From a virus (taxonomy: Duplodnaviria; Caudoviricetes), in the IMG/VR virus record IMGVR_UViG_3300049742_000009, positions 1,927 to 65,926 of that record: a DNA stretch of 64,000 nucleotides. The stretch is one strand, 5' to 3'. The notes beneath the pieces were generated by a model. The model had not been told where the DNA came from, made no database searches, and was given only the letters and a program-made list of their open reading frames with translations. Positions 54,202 through 63,819 of this stretch are shown in pieces (position 1 is the stretch's first letter; each line of letters starts with the position of its first letter). The position numbers were made by a program, and so were the translations under genes.

Positions 54202-54430
54202 GATCGGACACCTCCGCGTCGTATACCGGGATCTTCTCTATCTGCTCCAGTACGGTTTGCAGACGGAGGATCAATGAAGCCTGATCTCCGGTACGTAGGC
54301 GCGAGTTCAGGCACGTGTTACACAGGTTGGCCTCAAGTTGATGTGCAATGTAGTCGCGGATCGCTTCCAACGACTCCCGCATGTTCTCCTCTTGGACAAC
54401 TTCGGTTAGCTTCTTACGATTTGCTGTCAT
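54086..54430 (-). CDS. terminase small subunit (probable)
   Basis: LEA.RD.IA..L...ASL...L...L..I...VSDLEKIR pattern; directly upstream of terL; start moved to ATG 54430. Confidence 0.7.
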   Translation of the reverse strand: MTANRKKLTEVVQEENMRESLEAIRDYIAHQLEANLCNTCLNSRLRTGDQASLILRLQTVLEQIEKIPVYDAEVSDLEKIRNRAGTPRAVTRQQGGRHPSGTRKSTPPNPASSA

Positions 54431-55383
54431 CGTGGCCCCGGATTCAACGGCTCGTCGGGCGGTACTCGCCACGTTCGGTAGGGGGGTGCTCCGTAGTAGA
54501 CGTGGGCAACACGTTCATTCACGACTGCGGCAGCCGCACTGGGGTGAGCCCTGCGTCCAACGTCCTTGATACTCACGCTCACGTTGGCAACACCGGGCTT
54601 AGCCAACTGCCCATACAACACTGTTGGGTTCTTAGCCGATGCGGTAGCGGTTGCCTTGCCAGCACTAGGGCCAATTCCGTATACAGCGGCAGCGTTGTTA
54701 GCTACGACCGCCGTGTCCCCAGCGAAACCAGCGGCAGCGTTTACGATTCCGCCACCTGCCTGATTTAGCAGGACGATGGCCGTTGCACCGCCAGATGCAG
54801 CACTTGATCGCGTCTGCGTCCTGGAGAACGAGCCAGCCGATAGCGTACCGGCTGAGTCGGTCACAGCGCAGTTGGTGTTGTCCGGACTACCTGAGTTAGA
54901 TACCGAGAAATCCGCCCGCTCTGTGCCTGATCCCTCTGTCCAAGTGCGAGTTGACGAACTTCCATACTCGTAAGCCATGGCAAACGACAAGCCCCACTGC
55001 GTTGTGGCTGCCGTCACCGATGCCGTGTTGAAGTTAGAGCTTGCACCAACAGGCGATATATCGAAATGAGCAGTATCTACAGGGATCGTACTACTAACAC
55101 CCCGATAGGACACGATCGAAGCGCACGCTATGGAAGACTGAATGCTGAATGTGTAGCTTGATCCCTCGCCCGATGCAACCTTCCTGAACACGCGAACCGT
55201 GCGCAGGGAGTTGGTGCCAGAGTCAGCACTACCGAGAAGCGTCCAACCCGAGGGCGTGGAGGGTGTACCGCCGCAGATAGCGATCATCACATCGCCATCT
55301 ACCGTGCCACTGGGCTTACTTACGGAGATCGACGTGGTGTAGTTGGCCGTGCCATGAGCTTCGGCGACGAACGAGATAGCCAT
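54427..55383 (-). CDS. fibre-like virion protein (binding module plus about 4 Ala-rich repeats)
   Basis: KPSGTVDGDVMIA module; AG.A.A.A repeats. Confidence 0.7.
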   Translation of the reverse strand: MAISFVAEAHGTANYTTSISVSKPSGTVDGDVMIAICGGTPSTPSGWTLLGSADSGTNSLRTVRVFRKVASGEGSSYTFSIQSSIACASIVSYRGVSSTIPVDTAHFDISPVGASSNFNTASVTAATTQWGLSFAMAYEYGSSSTRTWTEGSGTERADFSVSNSGSPDNTNCAVTDSAGTLSAGSFSRTQTRSSAASGGATAIVLLNQAGGGIVNAAAGFAGDTAVVANNAAAVYGIGPSAGKATATASAKNPTVLYGQLAKPGVANVSVSIKDVGRRAHPSAAAAVVNERVAHVYYGAPPYRTWRVPPDEPLNPGPR

Positions 55384-55397
55384 GTCGTCTCCTCAAC

Positions 55398-55676
55398 TCA
55401 CCTACTGGTTACGCGAATCGTCATGGAGCGGTCAACGGTACGGTCTTGGTTGGTGACTATTCGATGAGTCACTGTATAGGGCGAACCAGCAACGCCACCT
55501 GAGAGCCAAGTCGTAGTCACCGTAGTGGTGTTCGACGTTGAATCAATGGTGATACCGGGCGTCGCAATGGCAGTAAAGCTTACAATCTGCTCATTGGTGG
55601 TCAGCCAATCCGACCAGTCGAACGAGTAGTCAAGGACATCATCGGGGTCCTTGAGAAAATCAGGGGATGATGTCAT
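55398..55676 (-). CDS. fibre-adaptor-like protein, paralogue 2
   Basis: KDPDDVLDYSFDWSDWL...WLSGG..G..Y.VT..I.T...RT..RS..IRV. Confidence 0.75.
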   Translation of the reverse strand: MTSSPDFLKDPDDVLDYSFDWSDWLTTNEQIVSFTAIATPGITIDSTSNTTTVTTTWLSGGVAGSPYTVTHRIVTNQDRTVDRSMTIRVTSR

Positions 55677-55677
55677 A

Positions 55678-57498
55678 TCAACTCTCCTCAACCATCAGGG
55701 TCCGCTCTTCCCAAGGTACAAATATGAAGCGATCTTCAAAACCGACCTTGATGGTTCGACTCGATCCAAAGTACGAAACAACAGGGTGAACCATAGCGAA
55801 GGCACTAGCCACACCGATGGACATAGCCAGGCCCGGAGCGGCGGTCTTTCCAGAGGCGTTCACCTGGGCTGTGCCAGCCGGTACGGCAAATCCAATCGCC
55901 GGTCCGTAGGCTGCTGCGGTTGAAAATGCAGTACCAGCGCGGTTTCCCACAGACTCGGAAAGCAGCCATGCGGCGGCAGTTGCGGCCGCCTTCCCTGCGG
56001 GCGCGTACTGCATGCGAGTCTGTTTAACCGATACGACCACAGTCGCTATACCGGCGGGCGCGTTATTGAATGGCGTTGTGGCTACGTCAACTTGCTTAAC
56101 GGAGGCAGAGGCTGTTGCACAGCCCGCCTGCGCACCAACTGCCGCAACTGGCGTCTTTGCGCTAGCTGTTGACGCTACTACATCTGGCGCGGGACTCAAC
56201 TCAAGGTCAGGTGCAGGCGAGTTTCCTGCGGCCGTTGCCGTGGCTACGCCAGCGTTCGCATTGACGGCTACGATCAACGTCCGAAGCGCGACGGTCGTAA
56301 CGATGGAGTCCGTCATACTCGTCGTGCTGTTTGCGGTGATCGAAGTGCCTGAAATAGAGCCGGGGTCAGTCTCAACTCCCGCGTCATACATGGCAGCAGA
56401 GTAGCTTGTACTAGCGCCGTGGTTCCCGCCCTCGAACCGCTCGTGCGCAACCCCAGAGGTGAAAGTATTAAAGCTGGTCGTAGTCCTACGTGTCGCACGG
56501 TGCGAAAGCACCATACTTGAATGTGTAGTTGTAACAGAAGGAGTCGTATGAGAAGTAGCGCTGCCAGACGCGGAAGATCCTGAGGCGTCTATCGGGTTGC
56601 TCGTATTGACGCCACGGTAGGCCGAGATGGTCGCCCAGAAGGGTGAGCTAGAGTCCCCGTTGTTCCATACATAGCTAGAGGCCGCCACGTCCGTAGATGT
56701 CGCGACCCTGTACCAAACCTCAACCCGGAACAAGTTACCCGTACTTGAATCCTGCGAAAGAACCCTGGTCCAAGCGCTCCCGGATGGCTGCGACATGCCA
56801 GCTTCGTTACCAACCAGGTATGCGATCATCACATCACCAACAGCAAGCCCCGCTGGCTTAGCGACGGTTGACGTTGACGTGTTGGAACCTGTAGGCGTTC
56901 CCTCGCTGGTGGCAATATGAGTGATGTTGCCGGAGCCACCACCACCTGCGCCCGACGACGTAACCGAAACGTCTACCCAATAGTTAGACCCGAGCGTGCT
57001 AGTCGGAAACGCAGCGGTAGCGGAAGGTTCGTTATACGCGCACTGCGCGCCGTTGAGGGCGGTTGACGTACCGGGCGCAGTGATCGGCCCAGCAGTGATC
57101 CCCGAGGCGCCGCCGCCGCTACTCCAGTAATTCGCAGACGATACATACGAGTTGGCGCTACCGGAGTAGTGAACAACGGCAACGTAGCTCGTACCATTGG
57201 TCAGCGACACAGGAGTCGTCAACGCCTGGTAGTTCCAAGCGTTTTGAGTCAGGTCAACGGCTAGGTTTACCGTAGTACCTGAGATCAGCGTACCCGTAGT
57301 TCCGTTGGTTGTACTGTAGAGGCGAAACGAGTATTTCGTGTGGTCAGTATCGAAGGTTCCGCTAGGCGCCCAGAAGTAGAAGCCGTTGAAGGTTACCCCA
57401 TCTTCATTGACCTTGAACTGAACGCCTAGATCGTGACTGAATCCACCGCTCGTAGTTCCGCTACCGTTGGTTGATGGCCACAGCCGATAGTCCGTCAT
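55678..57498 (-). CDS. fibre-like virion protein (DUF4082-like domain, binding module, about 8 Ala-rich repeats)
   Basis: DLGVQFKV...F..FYFW..LTQNAWN..LTTPV.L...YVAVV; KPAGLAVGDVMIA; start moved to ATG 57498. Confidence 0.7.
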   Translation of the reverse strand: MTDYRLWPSTNGSGTTSGGFSHDLGVQFKVNEDGVTFNGFYFWAPSGTFDTDHTKYSFRLYSTTNGTTGTLISGTTVNLAVDLTQNAWNYQALTTPVSLTNGTSYVAVVHYSGSANSYVSSANYWSSGGGASGITAGPITAPGTSTALNGAQCAYNEPSATAAFPTSTLGSNYWVDVSVTSSGAGGGGSGNITHIATSEGTPTGSNTSTSTVAKPAGLAVGDVMIAYLVGNEAGMSQPSGSAWTRVLSQDSSTGNLFRVEVWYRVATSTDVAASSYVWNNGDSSSPFWATISAYRGVNTSNPIDASGSSASGSATSHTTPSVTTTHSSMVLSHRATRRTTTSFNTFTSGVAHERFEGGNHGASTSYSAAMYDAGVETDPGSISGTSITANSTTSMTDSIVTTVALRTLIVAVNANAGVATATAAGNSPAPDLELSPAPDVVASTASAKTPVAAVGAQAGCATASASVKQVDVATTPFNNAPAGIATVVVSVKQTRMQYAPAGKAAATAAAWLLSESVGNRAGTAFSTAAAYGPAIGFAVPAGTAQVNASGKTAAPGLAMSIGVASAFAMVHPVVSYFGSSRTIKVGFEDRFIFVPWEERTLMVEES

Positions 57499-57514
57499 GC
57501 GTGGCCACCACCCT

Positions 57515-57790
57515 CTAGCGCTCCGTAACCCGTATATTGATCGAACGATCGTCCGTACGAGCCGCACTCGTAACTATGTGACACGTAACTCGGTACACAC
57601 TCCCGGCAGTTCCACCGGATACCCAAATAGTCGCAACGGTGTCATCATGACCCGTTGAGGTCACCGTCAGCCCGTCGTCAACAGTGAAGGTGGCGGTTGA
57701 GATCGTCTCACCAACCGCCAACCAGTCTTCCCAGTTGAACTGCCAGTCTAGATCCGCGTTAGGGTCCTTGATGAAGTTGAACCTAGCCAT
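57515..57790 (-). CDS. fibre-adaptor-like protein, paralogue 1
   Basis: KDPNADLDWQFNWEDWL...WVSGG..G..Y.VT..I.T...RT..RS..IRV. Confidence 0.75.
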   Translation of the reverse strand: MARFNFIKDPNADLDWQFNWEDWLAVGETISTATFTVDDGLTVTSTGHDDTVATIWVSGGTAGSVYRVTCHIVTSAARTDDRSINIRVTER

Positions 57791-60700
57791 TACGACCCTC
57801 CGTTGCTCACAACGTACGCAAACACCTCGCGAACCTCAGGGTCGATCGGATCAACCCGCTTTTCTTTAGCGATCGTTACGGATCGACTCTTAGCCGGGAT
57901 ATCAACAACCCGATTAAGAGCGTGGGCAGTTACGATCCTGTCCTCATGCACGATGTCAACTCGACGGCTATCGGGTGTACTTCCCTTAGTAACATCGAAT
58001 CCCATGCAGCCCGCTATCGCGCAACCCGCATGAGCGAGATGGAACACCGTCGCAGTCTCGACCCTTGGATCAAGAGCAGCAGCAACAATAACACCAGAAG
58101 CGTTGGCATCAACGTCCAACGTGCCAAATGTCGTTGCATCCTCGACCTCGACGGCAGCCGTAGCCCTACCGGCCGTGACGGAATACCCCGATATAACCTC
58201 GGGCGCATATCCACTCGCAACCGCCTCGGCCACACCAGCCGACACGCTCAGGTGAAGGCTGACCGTGGGCTTGAACGCAGCGGAAGTGACGGCAGCCCTG
58301 CCGGGTGCCGGATGACTGACTGTCGATGCCGAGACACCCTCGACCTCGACCACAGCCTCGGCCACGCCAGCCTGAGCACCTACGGCAGCAAATGCACCGT
58401 GCGCAGAGGCGGTTGTGGTTACATTTCCCGCACTCGGCTGTATCACACCCGTCGTCATTGCGCCGAGCGCTTCACCGACAGCCTGCGCAGTTCCAGGGTT
58501 GGGCCGCGTGGCGTTCGAGATCGTCGGATCGCCAGCGACACCCTCGACCTCGACGGCCCCAGCCTCAGGACTACAGGTCAACTCAAGCGCCAGGGCGCCT
58601 ACAGATGCACTGGAACTCGCAACGCCAGCATGCGCGTTGGTCATTCCGACTATCTCAACGTCGGCGCCGTAAGCCGTACCTGCGACTTCCGCAGTTCCGG
58701 CGGCGGGGCTGTCCACAAGGGCAGCCGTCGCACCGAGGGATTGCCCCGCCACCGTAGCCGACCCTGCGGTAACGGCTAGCGCCGGGGTCGGATTCTTAGT
58801 GGAAACGGTGACCGCAGCCACACCGGCATGAGCGTTTGAAGTCTCGGTAAGTGTAGGCGCGTTGGCTACAGCGGTAGCCTGCGCCAAACTAGCGCTGATG
58901 TTCGACGCTGCGGAGACCATAGCGCCCAGGGCAAGCGCCGAAACCTCGGCAGCCACCGCGTTCGGCGAGGCGCTATCGGTCACGGTCGGTCCGGCCGCCG
59001 TTGCCGTAACCGCCGCAGTACCCGCAGGCGCTTCATTGGTGGCCGAAGTCGCTACCGTAGGCGAGTAAGCCGCCGCCGTAGCTTCCGCGTTGTCTGCGGG
59101 AGAGGCCAGATCCAGATCAGGGCTGGGGCCATAGCTATCGGCGGCAACGCTCGCTGCCCCGGCATCAACGCCCAGTGTGTCAGCGATGGTTGGGCCGTAT
59201 GCGGCTGCTGATGTCGCAGCGCTTCCAGCATCAGGAAACTCAGCAGAGCTGGAAACAGGATCTTCAACTGCCGTAGCGGCAGCGGCAGATCCAGCCCGCG
59301 CGCCGATTGCAACCGTTGGATCAAGAGCAGATCCAGTGGTATCGGCAGCCCCGGCGTCGGGGGAGTCCAGCAGTGCGGTAGTTACGCCTATCGCGGCAGC
59401 GGTCGCAGTGGCTCCCCCGGCGTCCGGAGATACCGTAAGCGTAGACCCTGGACCGGCCGTTGTCACTACCGCCGTGGCAACTCCTGCCGCAGCCTCCACG
59501 TTGCTTACGACCGTGACCGAGGGATCGTACACCTCGGCCGCCCCCGTGGCCTGTGCGACCTGCACAGAGGCGCTGGACGTGACCTGAGGGGCGTCAACCC
59601 CGACGCCAGCTTCCGCAAGTCCAGCTTCCGGGGATGAAGTTACCAAAACGGACGAATTGCCAGCGGCAGCCTCGACCTCGGCCACGCCAACAACGACCTC
59701 GACGGATTCGCCTAGCGATGGAGCCGAAACGCCTACTAGCGCAGCAGCAACACCAGCTATGGGTGAACAAGTCAGCGTATCCGTAGGCGACTTACCAGAT
59801 GCAGTTGCCTGGGCAACGCCAGCTGATGCGTTGGTAGAATCGATCACACGCTTATAGGCAACGCCAAGCATGTTGGACCATACGTTACTTGTTCCGGACC
59901 ATGCGTGGAACTGGGAGACGGACGCACCTTCAGTCAGTCCCAAAACCTGATAGACAGGAGAACCAGTAGTCACCCCGCCCGTCGTTGACTTCATCTGCGC
60001 GGTGTCGAACGATGCGTAAGTTCCTACCGTACCAGTAGCGTTGTTTGTCAGCGTGTCTGTATTGCTGAAATGATCAATGTACGCAACCGCCATGTCACCG
60101 TTCTGGTTTGGAACGATAGCAGGTGATACATAAGGCGATGTCGTATCGCCGTGAATCGGCGTAGGCGCACTATCTGCCTCGGCTAGATTGCGAAACTCCT
60201 CAACCCAATAGAACGTAGGGCGAGTATGCGTCGATCCAGTGAGCGTTACCGTTATAGTATCGCTGGTCGTGAGTCGGGCTACATCCTGCCTAGTTGATGC
60301 TATGAACGCGTACTGAGAGCCTTGTATGTCCTGAGAGTCTATCGTCCAGGTGTTGCCTTGGGAATCGGTAACCGCCATGCTACGCGTACCGGTTGTGTCA
60401 GTCGTTGTGCGATACACTAGGACGAGCGTGTTGCCCAGTAGCGGGGAGGCAGTAAGTGGTATCGAAGTAGTCGCTACCCCGAAGTCCGTATTCTCACCGT
60501 TGGCAAGCTCCTTGACGTAGTGAATCAACTCCCCTACGTCAAATGCGCCTACAACATCTACTCGCGCCGAAGCAACCCCCGCATTTGCGTTCGTAGCAGG
60601 AGGGGCGTACTTCTTATAGCCACCAATGATGATGTCAGACCACGTACTGCTGCTAGTCGTCCAGGCGTGCTTCTGGCCAACTCCGTTACCAGATGAGAGG

Positions 60701-61281
60701 ATCTGATATACGGGCACCATCTTGCGAGCCGTCGTGCCAGATATCTGCGCCGTAGTGAACGACGAGTAAGTTCCCACGGTACCAGTGCCGTTGATGGTCA
60801 CCGTATCGGTAGTGGTCTGGTGGTCTTGCATGGCGATGATCAGGTCGCCGTCAGCAGTTGGAGTGTAAATTGGTGAAAGCTGCGGCGATGTGGTCTGATG
60901 GTTCGTCTGCATCGCACCATCGACGTACGACGTAACCGCTATGCCGGAGAACTCCTGCAAGCATGCAAGGAATTGCCCGCTGGTGTTAGCGGTTGTCGTA
61001 ATCGTAACGGTGTCAGATGTCGTCAGTGCGCCTACATCTTGGCGAGTTGACGCAATGATCAAGTCCTGGAAGTTTTCGTGATACTCGCCATCAATGGTCC
61101 AAGTGTTGCCCTTTGAGTCCGTAACCGTTGGGGTGGTATACGACTGCGTTGACATTGTGATGCGAGCTATAAGTATAAGCGTGTTTCCGGCTGTTGAGGC
61201 AGCAGAAACAGATAGTGCGTGCGTAGTCGAAACTGAAGCAGTTGTGAGGGTGCCGTTTTCTCGAACGTAAGCGATAGTCAC
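57790..61281 (-). CDS. long fibre-like virion protein (two tandem modules plus about 28 Ala-rich repeats)
   Basis: Two GNTL.L...VTDS.GNTWTID modules, then 22-25 aa AG.A.A.A.A..P repeats. Confidence 0.7.
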   Translation of the reverse strand: MTIAYVRENGTLTTASVSTTHALSVSAASTAGNTLILIARITMSTQSYTTPTVTDSKGNTWTIDGEYHENFQDLIIASTRQDVGALTTSDTVTITTTANTSGQFLACLQEFSGIAVTSYVDGAMQTNHQTTSPQLSPIYTPTADGDLIIAMQDHQTTTDTVTINGTGTVGTYSSFTTAQISGTTARKMVPVYQILSSGNGVGQKHAWTTSSSTWSDIIIGGYKKYAPPATNANAGVASARVDVVGAFDVGELIHYVKELANGENTDFGVATTSIPLTASPLLGNTLVLVYRTTTDTTGTRSMAVTDSQGNTWTIDSQDIQGSQYAFIASTRQDVARLTTSDTITVTLTGSTHTRPTFYWVEEFRNLAEADSAPTPIHGDTTSPYVSPAIVPNQNGDMAVAYIDHFSNTDTLTNNATGTVGTYASFDTAQMKSTTGGVTTGSPVYQVLGLTEGASVSQFHAWSGTSNVWSNMLGVAYKRVIDSTNASAGVAQATASGKSPTDTLTCSPIAGVAAALVGVSAPSLGESVEVVVGVAEVEAAAGNSSVLVTSSPEAGLAEAGVGVDAPQVTSSASVQVAQATGAAEVYDPSVTVVSNVEAAAGVATAVVTTAGPGSTLTVSPDAGGATATAAAIGVTTALLDSPDAGAADTTGSALDPTVAIGARAGSAAAATAVEDPVSSSAEFPDAGSAATSAAAYGPTIADTLGVDAGAASVAADSYGPSPDLDLASPADNAEATAAAYSPTVATSATNEAPAGTAAVTATAAGPTVTDSASPNAVAAEVSALALGAMVSAASNISASLAQATAVANAPTLTETSNAHAGVAAVTVSTKNPTPALAVTAGSATVAGQSLGATAALVDSPAAGTAEVAGTAYGADVEIVGMTNAHAGVASSSASVGALALELTCSPEAGAVEVEGVAGDPTISNATRPNPGTAQAVGEALGAMTTGVIQPSAGNVTTTASAHGAFAAVGAQAGVAEAVVEVEGVSASTVSHPAPGRAAVTSAAFKPTVSLHLSVSAGVAEAVASGYAPEVISGYSVTAGRATAAVEVEDATTFGTLDVDANASGVIVAAALDPRVETATVFHLAHAGCAIAGCMGFDVTKGSTPDSRRVDIVHEDRIVTAHALNRVVDIPAKSRSVTIAKEKRVDPIDPEVREVFAYVVSNGGS

Positions 61282-61308
61282 GGCACACCTCTCAACAGTG
61301 CCTAACCG

Positions 61309-61821
61309 TCAGACGGTTACAGTGAAGATGCCAGACGCGTTCCACACGATGGTGAACGTACCGGCGGTCACGCTCTGGCCGGAGCCGAACGAGTTGAAAC
61401 ACACGCCGAGCTTTGCGACGCCACCCGTGCCAGCAGCAATGCTGTTGTCGTACACCAGGCAGCCGTACGCGTTCGAGATCGTGACGTTACCGCCACCGGC
61501 AAGGTCCGCAGCGTCGAACGTGAAGACGTTAGACGAAACCGTTGCGGTCTTCGACGCCAACGCACGACCACCAGCAACCCAGTTGGTCGCGTCAGTGACC
61601 TCATTGGAAGTCACCCACGGACCACCGGTACCGTTGTAGGCTGCGTGTGCGGCTGTGTCAGTCTCGGACGGCGTGCCGGTGTTGTTGTAGAGCGCCACGT
61701 TGATGGTGTCGTTCACCAGGCCAGTGTACGAGTTGGGGATCTTGACGGGGGTTGTCTGATCTCCGTTACCCATGACGCCCTGCGCCCAGGTAACGAACAT
61801 CTTGCTTCCAGACCAGGTCAT
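61309..61821 (-). CDS. putative fibre shaft subunit
   Basis: DTINVALY...NEV....Y/W.AGG.AL...FDAAD...LVYD...GTFTIVW.ASGIF; AAGGAAGG RBS. Confidence 0.65.
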   Translation of the reverse strand: MTWSGSKMFVTWAQGVMGNGDQTTPVKIPNSYTGLVNDTINVALYNNTGTPSETDTAAHAAYNGTGGPWVTSNEVTDATNWVAGGRALASKTATVSSNVFTFDAADLAGGGNVTISNAYGCLVYDNSIAAGTGGVAKLGVCFNSFGSGQSVTAGTFTIVWNASGIFTVTV

Positions 61822-61873
61822 TTTAAGTCACCTTCCTTGTTACTGCGTTGACCCAAATTTCCGGGTCTGCTGA

Positions 61874-62185
61874 TCAGAACTCCATCTTCACTACGGCAGC
61901 ACCAGGGAACACAACAACATCGTTGCCATCTTCCCGGGTGACGCTGATAGCCGATACCGGCTTGCCATCCTCGTCCTTACGAACTGCCCAGTCGTAGCGA
62001 ACGTAGTCTTCCCAATCGGTCGCCTCGACCTTGCACTTGGTGCCTGCTGGCACCATCGGAGCCGTAAGGCCCTTAAGGCCAGGGCAGTTGTGCATCCTAC
62101 TCTGGCCCGGCTTCACCGAACAGACATCCTGCGTATCGCAGTTGGGGCATTCCCAGCGCGTCTCTCCGGAGAGTATCACTGTCAT
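61874..62185 (-). CDS. hypothetical zinc-binding protein in the fibre cassette
   Basis: WECPNC...MHNCPGLKGLTAPMV. Confidence 0.7.
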   Translation of the reverse strand: MTVILSGETRWECPNCDTQDVCSVKPGQSRMHNCPGLKGLTAPMVPAGTKCKVEATDWEDYVRYDWAVRKDEDGKPVSAISVTREDGNDVVVFPGAAVVKMEF

Positions 62186-63819
62186 GTTCTCTTTACCTTA
62201 ATCTCTCTTATTTCGTGGGGAATAGTATAGCTTCGGTCTGCGGTCAACGAAACGCGCAGCACGCGTACTACGTCTGACGTTCCGCCAGTAGCGTGCCCGA
62301 TGGCGTCGTAAGCGTTACCTTGTGCATTGCCGAAGCCCGATAGGCCAGCTCCGATGCGCAAGCCCGCGTTGTATGCGGTAGTAACTATCGCAGACTTAGC
62401 AACACTTGGGTTACTAGTTGAATGAATCTGCGTTAGGTACAGATCAACCGTAGCGACCGGCATTCCGTCAATTGCAGCCGTAGCTACGGGCTGCGAGTCT
62501 ACGACCCCTACATCACCCTCGACCTGTGCTGTGCCAGCGTTCGCACTTATGCCGACCTGCACAACTGCATCGAAAGCCTGCGCAGTTGAGGCGATGGGAT
62601 CAACGTAGACTATCGCCTCGGTGTCATATGCGTCCAACCTGACAACCGCTGGGATGGCGTGCGCCGTTCCAGGCTGGATCGTAATGTTCGCTATAGCGAA
62701 CATGTGGGCAACATCAGGAAAAACATTGGTATTTGATGAGCTAGAGTCAAACGCAGTCGCCGTAACGCTAGCAAGTCCCGCGCTTACGTTGGACTCTACG
62801 GATACATCTGCACCGTAAGCAATCGCCGCAGCATCCGCAGCACCAGCCGCACCCGTTACTCCGCTCGTCACCGTAGCCGAGTAGACAGCAGCAGTCGCGG
62901 CGGCCGAACCGATCGGCGCGCTGTCGGCGTCCGTGATCGTCGGACCCTGGACGGCAGCGGTCGCGGAAGCCGCACCGGCCGGGACCCCGGTCGCCACAAT
63001 CGGCGCCAGAGCGGCGGCATTTGCCTGCGCACGCCCAGGTTGGGCGGTTGCCATCGGCGCAGAGAGCGCAGCGGCAGTCGCAGCGGCCTTGCCAGCCGTA
63101 GGCGCCACGGTCTTGGTCGTGGTCGGCGTCTGGGCCGTGGCGGTTGTCATGGCCACGCCAGCAGACGCATTGACGGCCGTAGCGGCAGGCGCGAGGAACA
63201 GAAGCCCGTCGCCACCGTACCAGTTGGTGTGACCATCGGTGGCGGTGGTCGAGTAGCTCTGAGATCCAGTGGGCGCGTTCAAGCGATAGAAACTGAAGGT
63301 ACTACCTGTCGTACTGTCGTCTCCGCTTACAACAGCAACAGACATATTAGTGGGCGTACCCTGTCCGTGGCCCGCACCGCCGTTGTAGAAGTTACCTACG
63401 AACACAGCGCAAGCTGAGCTTGTGCCAGTGTTGTTGACGGAAGGGGATGTCACGGTTGCGTGACTGACTCCGCCCCACCTTGTACCGCTATGCGCTATAA
63501 CGGGGTTGCTAGTGTTTGCGCCAGTGAACACAGTAGTAGCGCCAGCGCCAAAGCAACCCGAGCCGTCGCTAGTTGCGGTGATGGAACCCTCGCCGCCGGT
63601 TGCCACCTTGTAGAAGATCCAGTGGCTACCGGTATTGCTCATTCCACCGTCAAGCTGCGTCCAACCGGAGCCAGATAGCGAAAGTGTCGTCGTCCCAAAG
63701 AATCCGCCCAGGGATACGATGATAATTGCGCCCGCAGGAATGCTAGCCGGGGTCGGAATTACCGGAGTTGAGGTACCGGAATACTGCGCCGAAGCGGAGC
63801 CGAAATACGCTATAGCCAC
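62182..63819 (-). CDS. fibre-like virion protein (binding module plus about 13-14 Ala-rich repeats)
   Basis: P.SIPAGAIIIV module; AG.A.A.A repeats; GAAGGGG RBS. Confidence 0.7.
   Translation of the reverse strand: MAIAYFGSASAQYSGTSTPVIPTPASIPAGAIIIVSLGGFFGTTTLSLSGSGWTQLDGGMSNTGSHWIFYKVATGGEGSITATSDGSGCFGAGATTVFTGANTSNPVIAHSGTRWGGVSHATVTSPSVNNTGTSSACAVFVGNFYNGGAGHGQGTPTNMSVAVVSGDDSTTGSTFSFYRLNAPTGSQSYSTTATDGHTNWYGGDGLLFLAPAATAVNASAGVAMTTATAQTPTTTKTVAPTAGKAAATAAALSAPMATAQPGRAQANAAALAPIVATGVPAGAASATAAVQGPTITDADSAPIGSAAATAAVYSATVTSGVTGAAGAADAAAIAYGADVSVESNVSAGLASVTATAFDSSSSNTNVFPDVAHMFAIANITIQPGTAHAIPAVVRLDAYDTEAIVYVDPIASTAQAFDAVVQVGISANAGTAQVEGDVGVVDSQPVATAAIDGMPVATVDLYLTQIHSTSNPSVAKSAIVTTAYNAGLRIGAGLSGFGNAQGNAYDAIGHATGGTSDVVRVLRVSLTADRSYTIPHEIREIKVKRT

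Follow-up and report, generated by a model that had tools for sequence, protein, structure and literature searches.

The question raised by the stretch of DNA studied here, hereafter the window (64,000 nucleotides, bases 1927-65926 of the 65,926-bp viral record IMGVR_UViG_3300049742_000009, Caudoviricetes, complete according to CheckV), is what a phage builds from a cassette in which four large proteins bear long tracts of Ala-rich repeats. Located at the end of the record, the cassette has every gene on the minus strand and stands immediately upstream of an open reading frame (ORF) that resembles a small terminase and of the large terminase gene (phrog_9, E 1e-71); its genes follow in the direction of transcription as p545, z103, b170, p1163, a91, p629, a97 and p318, before the terminase genes. 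Our answer, for which belief and doubt are evenly balanced, is that the cassette may encode a set of chain-like (‘beads-on-a-rope’) virion fibres as in fibre I of the Ralstonia podophage GP4, the collar-whiskers of the myophage Bas63 and the fibres of the podophage A1002. The four large proteins would be the ropes of such fibres, and the 170-aa beta protein b170, probably together with z103, would be the bead.

As the preliminary description of this DNA had stated, p318, p629, p1163 and p545 (318, 629, 1163 and 545 amino acids, aa) share one plan, in which N-terminal beta modules are followed by Ala-rich repeats and by a C-terminal motif. Autocorrelation against shuffled sequences revealed a 22-aa period in p1163 (z 8.8) and a period of 22-24 aa in p629, p545 and p318 (z 3.4-3.7), and the observed range of 20-24 aa corrects the 22-25 aa claimed before. 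Upon in-register listing, p1163 showed 28 tandem units and one isolated unit between its two N-domains, p629 showed 8 units, p545 showed 7 clear units and then a degenerate stretch which brings the count to about 13, and p318 showed 3-4 units. This matches the earlier hand counts of about 4, 8, 13-14 and 28, but the ‘doubling series’ read into them was rejected as a finding, as values of about 3.5, 8, 13 and 28 give ratios of about 2.3, 1.6 and 2.2 and relatives have many other repeat numbers. The repeats of p1163 follow the consensus x-P-x-A-G-V-A-x-A-x-A-x-A-Y-G-P-T-L-x-L-x-x, and its repeat tract is rich in Ala (26%), with only 9% of large hydrophobic residues and 1% of Lys+Arg.

The N-domains of p318 and p545 matched the second N-domain of p629 with E 1e-21 and E 8e-12, respectively, and the two N-domains of p1163, which share 44% identity with one another (E 8e-56), showed a weak relation to those of the other ropes; a search of the PDB gave no sequence match for p1163. 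The first domain of p629 is a different module. For p629 itself no Pfam match was obtained at E<=0.1, and a precomputed match to DUF4082 (PF13313) exists for relatives that are 30-63% identical to it in this domain. The N-terminal binding modules formerly proposed thus hold up as mostly homologous domains, with the p1163 domains only distantly attached and the first p629 domain outside the group. In an AlphaFold2 (AF2) model of p629 aa 216-629, built on a shallow alignment of ten sequences, the N-domain was all beta with predicted local distance difference test (pLDDT) values of 80-90, whereas the repeats and the C-terminus reached a pLDDT of 25-33, values at which the p629 repeats on their own are not confidently predicted to fold. 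Foldseek gave weak matches of the p629 N-domain to jelly-roll, lectin-like and carbohydrate-binding-module (CBM)-like folds (best E 9e-3), and we regard the N-domains as diverged beta-sandwich modules. About five tandem copies of the shared N-domain, without repeats or C-terminal motif, make up a metagenomic relative of 1046 aa (P0133), and the N-domain can therefore be considered an independent module.

The adaptor identity of a91 and a97 is firm. Both belong to Pfam PF23148, titled ‘Podophage GP4 fiber-tail adaptor protein gp77’, with 99 and 94 bits, respectively, against a cut-off of 27 bits, and a91 also matched GP4 gp77 itself in the PDB (Table 1). The two adaptor paralogues recognized previously, here measured at about 91 aa, are therefore two PF23148 copies in one genome. 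The GP4 structure (PDB 8JOU) was reportedly described by Zheng et al. in 2023 (J Mol Biol 435:168258). The Gp77-like family is common in phages of Gordonia, Mycobacterium, Rhodococcus and Ralstonia (190 records), and in many actinophages the gene stands among the tail-tip genes; the site of attachment to the virion could be the neck or the tail tip.

The C-terminal motif of the ropes consists of three short (E/D)-x-R-x-x-x-V strands (e.g. SRTIKVG-FEDRFIFVP-WEERTLMVEES) with the general form (S)R-x-V...E-x-R...RTxxVE. It is clear in p629, p1163 and p545, is kept in orthologues and is degenerate in p318, so that the R/V/E-rich C-terminus once ascribed to all four proteins is evident in three. 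A hidden Markov model (HMM) of the motif reached, beyond the ropes used for training, the extreme C-termini of proteins in the adaptor-bearing metagenomic loci L005, L007, L010, L022, L033, L046 and L061, and its other matches at E<1 were just two 55-aa antisense ORFs, apparently spurious. An adaptor gene directly follows a motif-bearing rope gene in several loci, and does so twice in the window. This adjacency and co-occurrence of motif and adaptor supports, but does not prove, the earlier suggestion that the rope C-terminus docks on the adaptor. In P0124, a metagenomic relative of p629 and a97, a rope reads straight into a Gp77 adaptor within a single 508-aa ORF, which could be a natural fusion or an artefact of assembly or gene calling. 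Periodic proteins in loci that lack a Gp77 adaptor end in different motifs, namely SGREP repeats or RPxxG repeats, which may represent alternative anchor classes. C-terminal repeats of the form (V)SGREP or RKxIPRPxxG...RP were seen in the periodic proteins of L009, L024, L026, L039 and L043, and of L014-L020 and L079, all without a Gp77 adaptor.

A ruler-templated fibre is already an existing architecture. In GP4, Bas63 and A1002, dimers of a beta protein of 107-171 aa are strung on a rope by strand complementation, and the number of sites on the rope sets the length of the fibre (PMC12609058, PMC13730344). In GP4, 15 copies of gp77 surround the head-to-tail adaptor and keep the fibres in place (PMC11445570), and fibre I strings five dimers of gp80 (140 aa) on a rope which is a protein of its own and interlocks with an immunoglobulin (Ig)-like collar (PMC12609058). 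In Bas63 the collar protein is extended at its N-terminus to form the rope, which holds two dimers only; the whisker dimers wrap around it ‘like beads on a string’ and have their incomplete sandwiches completed by it (PMC12609058). In A1002, 11 dimers of proteins of 147-171 aa sit on rope residues 243-468 via an ‘augmented beta-sheet’, the rope is anchored via its C-terminal part, and each dimer takes up about 20.5 aa and about 27 Angstrom (PMC13730344). The spacing per dimer and the C-terminal anchoring of A1002 therefore fit the 22-aa period and the polarity of the proteins in the window. What the preliminary description had put forward as a model of shaft subunits recruited by each repeat thus agrees in mechanism with solved phages and in period and polarity with A1002; it is not new, and for this cassette it is partly supported.

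Applied to the cassette, this architecture would give each rope one or two distal lectin-like N-terminal beta modules, a track of 22-aa strand-donor repeats which would not fold on its own, and a charged C-terminal beta motif that would dock on an Ig-like adaptor of the Gp77 family (a91 or a97), itself sitting on the virion. Dimers of the bead, b170 probably with z103, would clamp one repeat after another by beta-sheet augmentation. The fibres of a single phage would then offer about 4, 8, 13 and 28 positions for beads and would end in different tips, which may differ in ligand specificity, and extrapolation from the distance per dimer in A1002 would put the lengths of these fibres at about 10 to 75 nm.

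The gene order of the cassette has a parallel in RPZH6, a GP4-like Ralstonia phage, in which the gp80 gene (ORF85; E 1e-86 to 8jou_a), a 325-aa ORF84, a 568-aa ORF83 and the Gp77 adaptor gene (ORF82) follow one another with bead, likely rope and adaptor in the same order as b170, p1163 and a91 in the window. The Gly/Ala-rich ORF84 (L087:2285-3262), located between the gp80 and gp77 orthologues, has periods of 20 aa (z 6.0) and 10 aa; its ...ERQLFVEDDSRTLVV... stretch resembles the C-terminal motif of the window by eye, and the motif HMM gave no match. The cassette is similar to GP4 in having an adaptor of the same Pfam family and a rope that is a separate protein, in the succession (seen via RPZH6) of a small beta protein gene, a protein with a period of about 20 aa and an adaptor, and in that gp80 is the top solved-structure match of b170 by Foldseek, a weak one. 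In contrast to GP4, b170 has no detectable sequence relation to Gp80, four ropes with up to 28 repeats stand against one rope with five dimers, the ropes carry globular N-terminal modules, and two adaptor paralogues and an extra zinc-ribbon partner, z103, are present. Furthermore, the source phage is siphovirus-like and actinobacterial, whereas GP4 is a proteobacterial podophage.

The candidate bead b170 is highly conserved: one search yielded 1,995 relatives, and another yielded 845 clusters at 50% identity (E<=0.001). Its AF2 model (pLDDT 78, predicted template modelling score 0.80) comprises a strand at residues 5-8, a helix at residues 10-17 and then a beta sandwich. Foldseek against the PDB placed 8jou_a (gp80 of GP4 fibre I) first, with E 0.08, probability 0.77 and template modelling (TM) scores of 0.37/0.44, and VIA-align superimposed the two collinearly over 117/136 residues (Z 5.5, root mean square deviation 4.3 Angstrom). 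Weaker fold matches were the Bas63 connector entry 9mt4_L, second in Foldseek and with a VIA-align Z of 3.9, and the Sf14 neck entry 9c39_K. Stronger matches came from the BFVD (E 5e-6 to 1e-3), where b170 resembled the N-terminal domains of proteins titled ‘tail collar fiber’ and also a phage 7-7-1 structural protein. The nearest named cluster in the ESM Atlas was Gp80 (score 0.88, 181/256 features). No meaningful match among PDB sequences was found for b170 with phmmer or with a profile search, and a jackhmmer search started from gp80 did not reach it. The strong ribosome-binding site noted earlier for the 170-aa protein is real in that its Shine-Dalgarno sequence is long, but it is no distinction, as the remaining genes of the cassette have good ones too. 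The case for b170 as the recruited subunit is circumstantial and is made up of synteny, the clustering of periodic proteins around it, the weak fold match to gp80 and the language-model lead; the shaft subunit first proposed is favoured by synteny, linkage and a weak full-length fold match, but not by any sequence-profile link to Gp80. One b170 relative of 304 aa (P0209) consists of a b170-like N-terminal half and an unrelated C-terminal extension.

Linkage was counted in a sample of 80 metagenomic loci with a b170 homologue. A homologue of z103 was present in 77 of the 80, usually immediately upstream of that of b170; z103 bears the conserved zinc-ribbon signature W-x-CP-x-C...H-x-C. In at least eight cluster representatives (e.g. 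P0163, P0195 and P0197) z103 and b170 are fused as one polypeptide, and on the strength of these fusions z103, which the preliminary description had overlooked, belongs to the system. A lead from z103 to DUF5979/Cna_B-like folds (ESM Atlas 0.85, 133 features) had a low score and was not used. As the repeat HMM built from the window proved too specific, matching in one of the 80 loci, it was replaced by a generic periodicity scan, which found large periodic proteins (18-24 aa) in the neighbourhood of the b170 homologue, from −3 to +4 genes, in 38 of the 80 loci; 38 of 236 ORFs near b170 were periodic, compared with 7 of 306 farther off. In L054 and L010 the gene order is like that of b170, p1163 and a91 in the window, and the 1543-aa periodic protein of L010 is followed by two adaptors. 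The periodic protein of L054 (L054:10743-15002; 1419 aa) is little more than a 20-aa repeat (KPSAGTVTATATAYGATVAV-like) present in about 65 units and lacks a globular N-domain, and a Gp77 adaptor gene comes directly after it. The closest cultured relatives of b170 found were gp6 of the satellite MiniFlayer (37% identity, E 2e-11), which is near the repeat-bearing gp8, and Orf27 of the Gordonia phage GMA1 (E 5e-10), which adjoins the repeat-bearing Orf28.

Several results weigh against the rope-and-bead reading. The scores of b170 with 8jou_a (Z 5.5, TM 0.37/0.44) fall within a range that the tool notes give as common for unrelated folds. The Gp80 family (PF23140) was found neither in b170 nor in its 85 relatives at E<=0.1, nor in a Pfam scan of the whole record; hhalign gave b170 and Gp80 a probability of 0.1-0.5%, and hmmsearch between them stayed below significance. 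ORF84 of RPZH6 is likely the orthologue of the GP4 rope, as we infer, but it has no sequence match in the PDB. A Gp77 adaptor was within reach in only about 10 of the 80 b170 loci, and the Rhodococcus phages Shagrat and Madraxi, which possess adaptor and ropes, have no detectable b170 homologue, so that b170 and adaptor are separable. Lastly, AF2 drew the p629 repeats as a beta-solenoid-like coil, at very low confidence, which VIA-align matched to beta-helix proteins with Z 8-10.

The scarcity of adaptors in b170 loci, the ropes of Shagrat and Madraxi and the coil drawn by AF2 are equally points for the rival that survives best, according to which the large proteins are self-sufficient fibres or decoration proteins. 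The 22-aa repeats would then need no partner to fold, as either a thin beta-solenoid rich in Ala or a beta shaft made by a homotrimer, and anchoring would again fall to the Gp77 adaptors; b170 and z103 would be a pair of structural proteins without relation to the fibres whose genes happen to adjoin, e.g. from the neck, the collar or the head decoration. Beta-solenoid coils typically have 20-22 residues, and in MiniFlayer, L024 and L054 the module with b170 is flanked by the major head and connector genes, the usual place of decoration and neck genes. The coil as such means little given its pLDDT of 25-33, but because AF2 drew it at all this rival stays alive. Further points against a self-folding tract are the low content of large hydrophobic residues in the repeats, whose alternating pattern is dominated by Ala/Gly/Ser/Thr, the tight clustering of periodic proteins around b170, and a gene order equal to that of a GP4-like phage whose small protein is a fibre subunit. 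We consider it a possible but rather unlikely explanation.

It is improbable that b170 and z103 act as assembly chaperones for the repeat proteins and are absent from the mature virion. Small genes beside fibre genes often encode chaperones, and the linkage to periodic proteins and the z103-b170 fusions would suit any functional partnership; but the conservation of b170 across its 845 clusters, its fold matches to virion fibre parts (GP4 fibre I and tail-collar fibre domains) and its long Shine-Dalgarno sequence argue against such a role. Finally, secreted or surface-binding factors outside the virion, such as wall- or glycan-binding effectors during infection, are suggested by the weak lectin/CBM-like fold matches of the N-domains and by DUF4082, a domain found on surface proteins, in relatives of the first p629 domain, but are very hard to credit in view of two Gp77 virion adaptors in the cassette, translations in which signal peptides are not evident by eye, equivalents annotated as minor tail proteins in related Rhodococcus phages and the location of the cassette inside a structural operon in other phages.

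Of the other solved chain-like fibres, those of the Pseudomonas podophage A1002 (nozzle-rope gp39, fibre dimers gp40 and gp41) resemble the proposed rope-and-bead cassette in about 20.5 aa per docked dimer, C-terminal anchoring, a globular Ig-like domain at the far end of the rope track and beads of 147-171 aa (PMC13730344); the two different bead proteins of A1002 are a possible parallel to z103 and b170. However, the A1002 rope, compared here by description only, is part of the nozzle and not a free protein on a Gp77 adaptor, and there is one rope type with 11 sites. In the Felixounavirus phages Bas63 and Sf14 an Ig-like collar carries a rope with whisker dimers as beads (PMC12609058, PMC11821841), and the whisker, with its N-terminal helix and incomplete sandwich, is reminiscent of the strand, helix and beta sandwich of the b170 model. 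The Bas63 rope differs in being a collar extension that holds two dimers, and the match of b170 to 9mt4_L is weak (Z 3.9).

In MiniFlayer and GMA1 the likeness lies in a b170 relative close to a repeat-bearing protein; the Gp77 adaptor was found in neither, and a Pfam scan of MiniFlayer gp9 gave nothing. The repeat-bearing protein of MiniFlayer (L085:5186-10334), gp8 of 1376 aa, has LamG domains and short P(M/L)xGSG..P units which are scattered with a spacing of about 22 aa, and GMA1 Orf28 (L086:8411-9670) has a reversed polarity, with N-terminal repeats and a C-terminal globular domain that resembles the window N-domain by eye. The gp6-gp9 region of MiniFlayer may be part of the ‘adsorption module’ which its authors proposed for binding the neck of the helper (PMC10690885).

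The nearest cultured phages by large terminase are the Rhodococcus phages Shagrat, REQ1 and Madraxi (54% identity), siphoviruses that likewise keep ‘minor tail protein’ genes before the terminase; megablast found no DNA match of the cassette to cultured phages. In these phages a Gp77-like gene occupies the corresponding position (in Shagrat gp2, with 55% identity to a91), and the ropes have N-domains, 18-20-aa repeats and the same C-terminal motif. Their repeat sequence is another one, and instead of a detectable b170/z103 homologue they have a ‘minor tail protein’ of about 200 aa, which in Shagrat (gp3) and Madraxi (gp5) matched neither the b170 profile nor any ORF of the window.

The positions first given for the eight minus-strand ORFs were confirmed (Table 1). 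Two starts called by the ORF finder, GTG for p629 (57567) and TTG for a97 (55691), nevertheless appear too far upstream: since homologues begin at the ATG codons listed in Table 1, with the sequences MTDYRLWP... and MTSSPDF..., respectively, these are probably the true starts, that of a97 being directly beside the p629 stop codon.

Table 1. Genes and repeat tracts of the cassette, in order of transcription (positions in the window).
Feature	Position	Strand	Remarks
p545, candidate rope protein	62182..63819	-	one N-terminal beta domain, ~13 repeats (7 clear, rest degenerate), C-terminal R/V/E motif
Repeat tract of p545	62320..63171	-	aa 217 to ~500; autocorrelation and in-register listing
z103, 103 aa	61874..62185	-	CPxC...HxC zinc-ribbon and small beta domain; conserved partner of b170
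b170, 170-aa beta protein, candidate bead (fibre subunit)	61309..61821	-	Shine-Dalgarno AAGGAAGGTGA
p1163, candidate rope protein	57790..61281	-	two tandem N-terminal domains, 28 repeats, C-terminal motif
Repeat tract of p1163	57973..59832	-	aa 484-1103, 28 units of 22 aa
a91, Gp77-family fibre-tail adaptor	57515..57790	-	Pfam PF23148 E 2e-28; PDB 8jou_D (GP4 gp77) E 2.3e-9
p629, candidate rope protein	55678..57567	-	DUF4082-like domain, shared N-domain, 8 repeats, C-terminal motif; likely true start ATG 57498
Repeat tract of p629	55768..56262	-	aa 436-600
a97, Gp77-family fibre-tail adaptor	55398..55691	-	Pfam PF23148 E 9e-27; likely true start ATG 55676
p318, shortest candidate rope protein	54427..55383	-	one N-domain, 3-4 repeats, degenerate C-terminal motif
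Repeat tract of p318	54484..54741	-	aa 215 to ~300

Chain-like rope/bead fibres were found only in 2023-2026 and so far in few phages of Gram-negative hosts. The cassette is probably a variant of this known fibre type, with four ropes of graded length on Gp77 adaptors and with a distinct and widespread actinophage family as its bead. Beyond that, and with more doubt than confidence, we tentatively propose a widespread actinophage construction kit, in which a highly conserved bead pair, z103 and b170, would polymerise on interchangeable ropes, and the number of repeats (3 to about 65) would programme the length of the fibre. One virion would combine several paralogous ropes, which would differ in their lectin-like tips and whose C-terminal anchors (Gp77-docking, SGREP-type or RPxxG-type) could be exchanged. 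If this proposal is true, the rope-and-bead principle is no longer confined to three lineages of Gram-negative phages but also covers actinobacterial siphophages and the satellite MiniFlayer, and length-by-template becomes directly testable by repeat deletion.

If the mechanism is the same as in the solved fibres, the principle would be widespread in actinobacterial phages, as judged by the number of b170 clusters, and a single virion could bear a number of ropes whose lengths are programmed and whose tips differ. It would also explain the unannotated ‘hypothetical’ or ‘minor tail’ genes beside the terminase or capsid genes of many actinophages, including the putative adsorption module of MiniFlayer, and the adding or removing of 22-aa units would offer an experimental handle on fibre length and host recognition.

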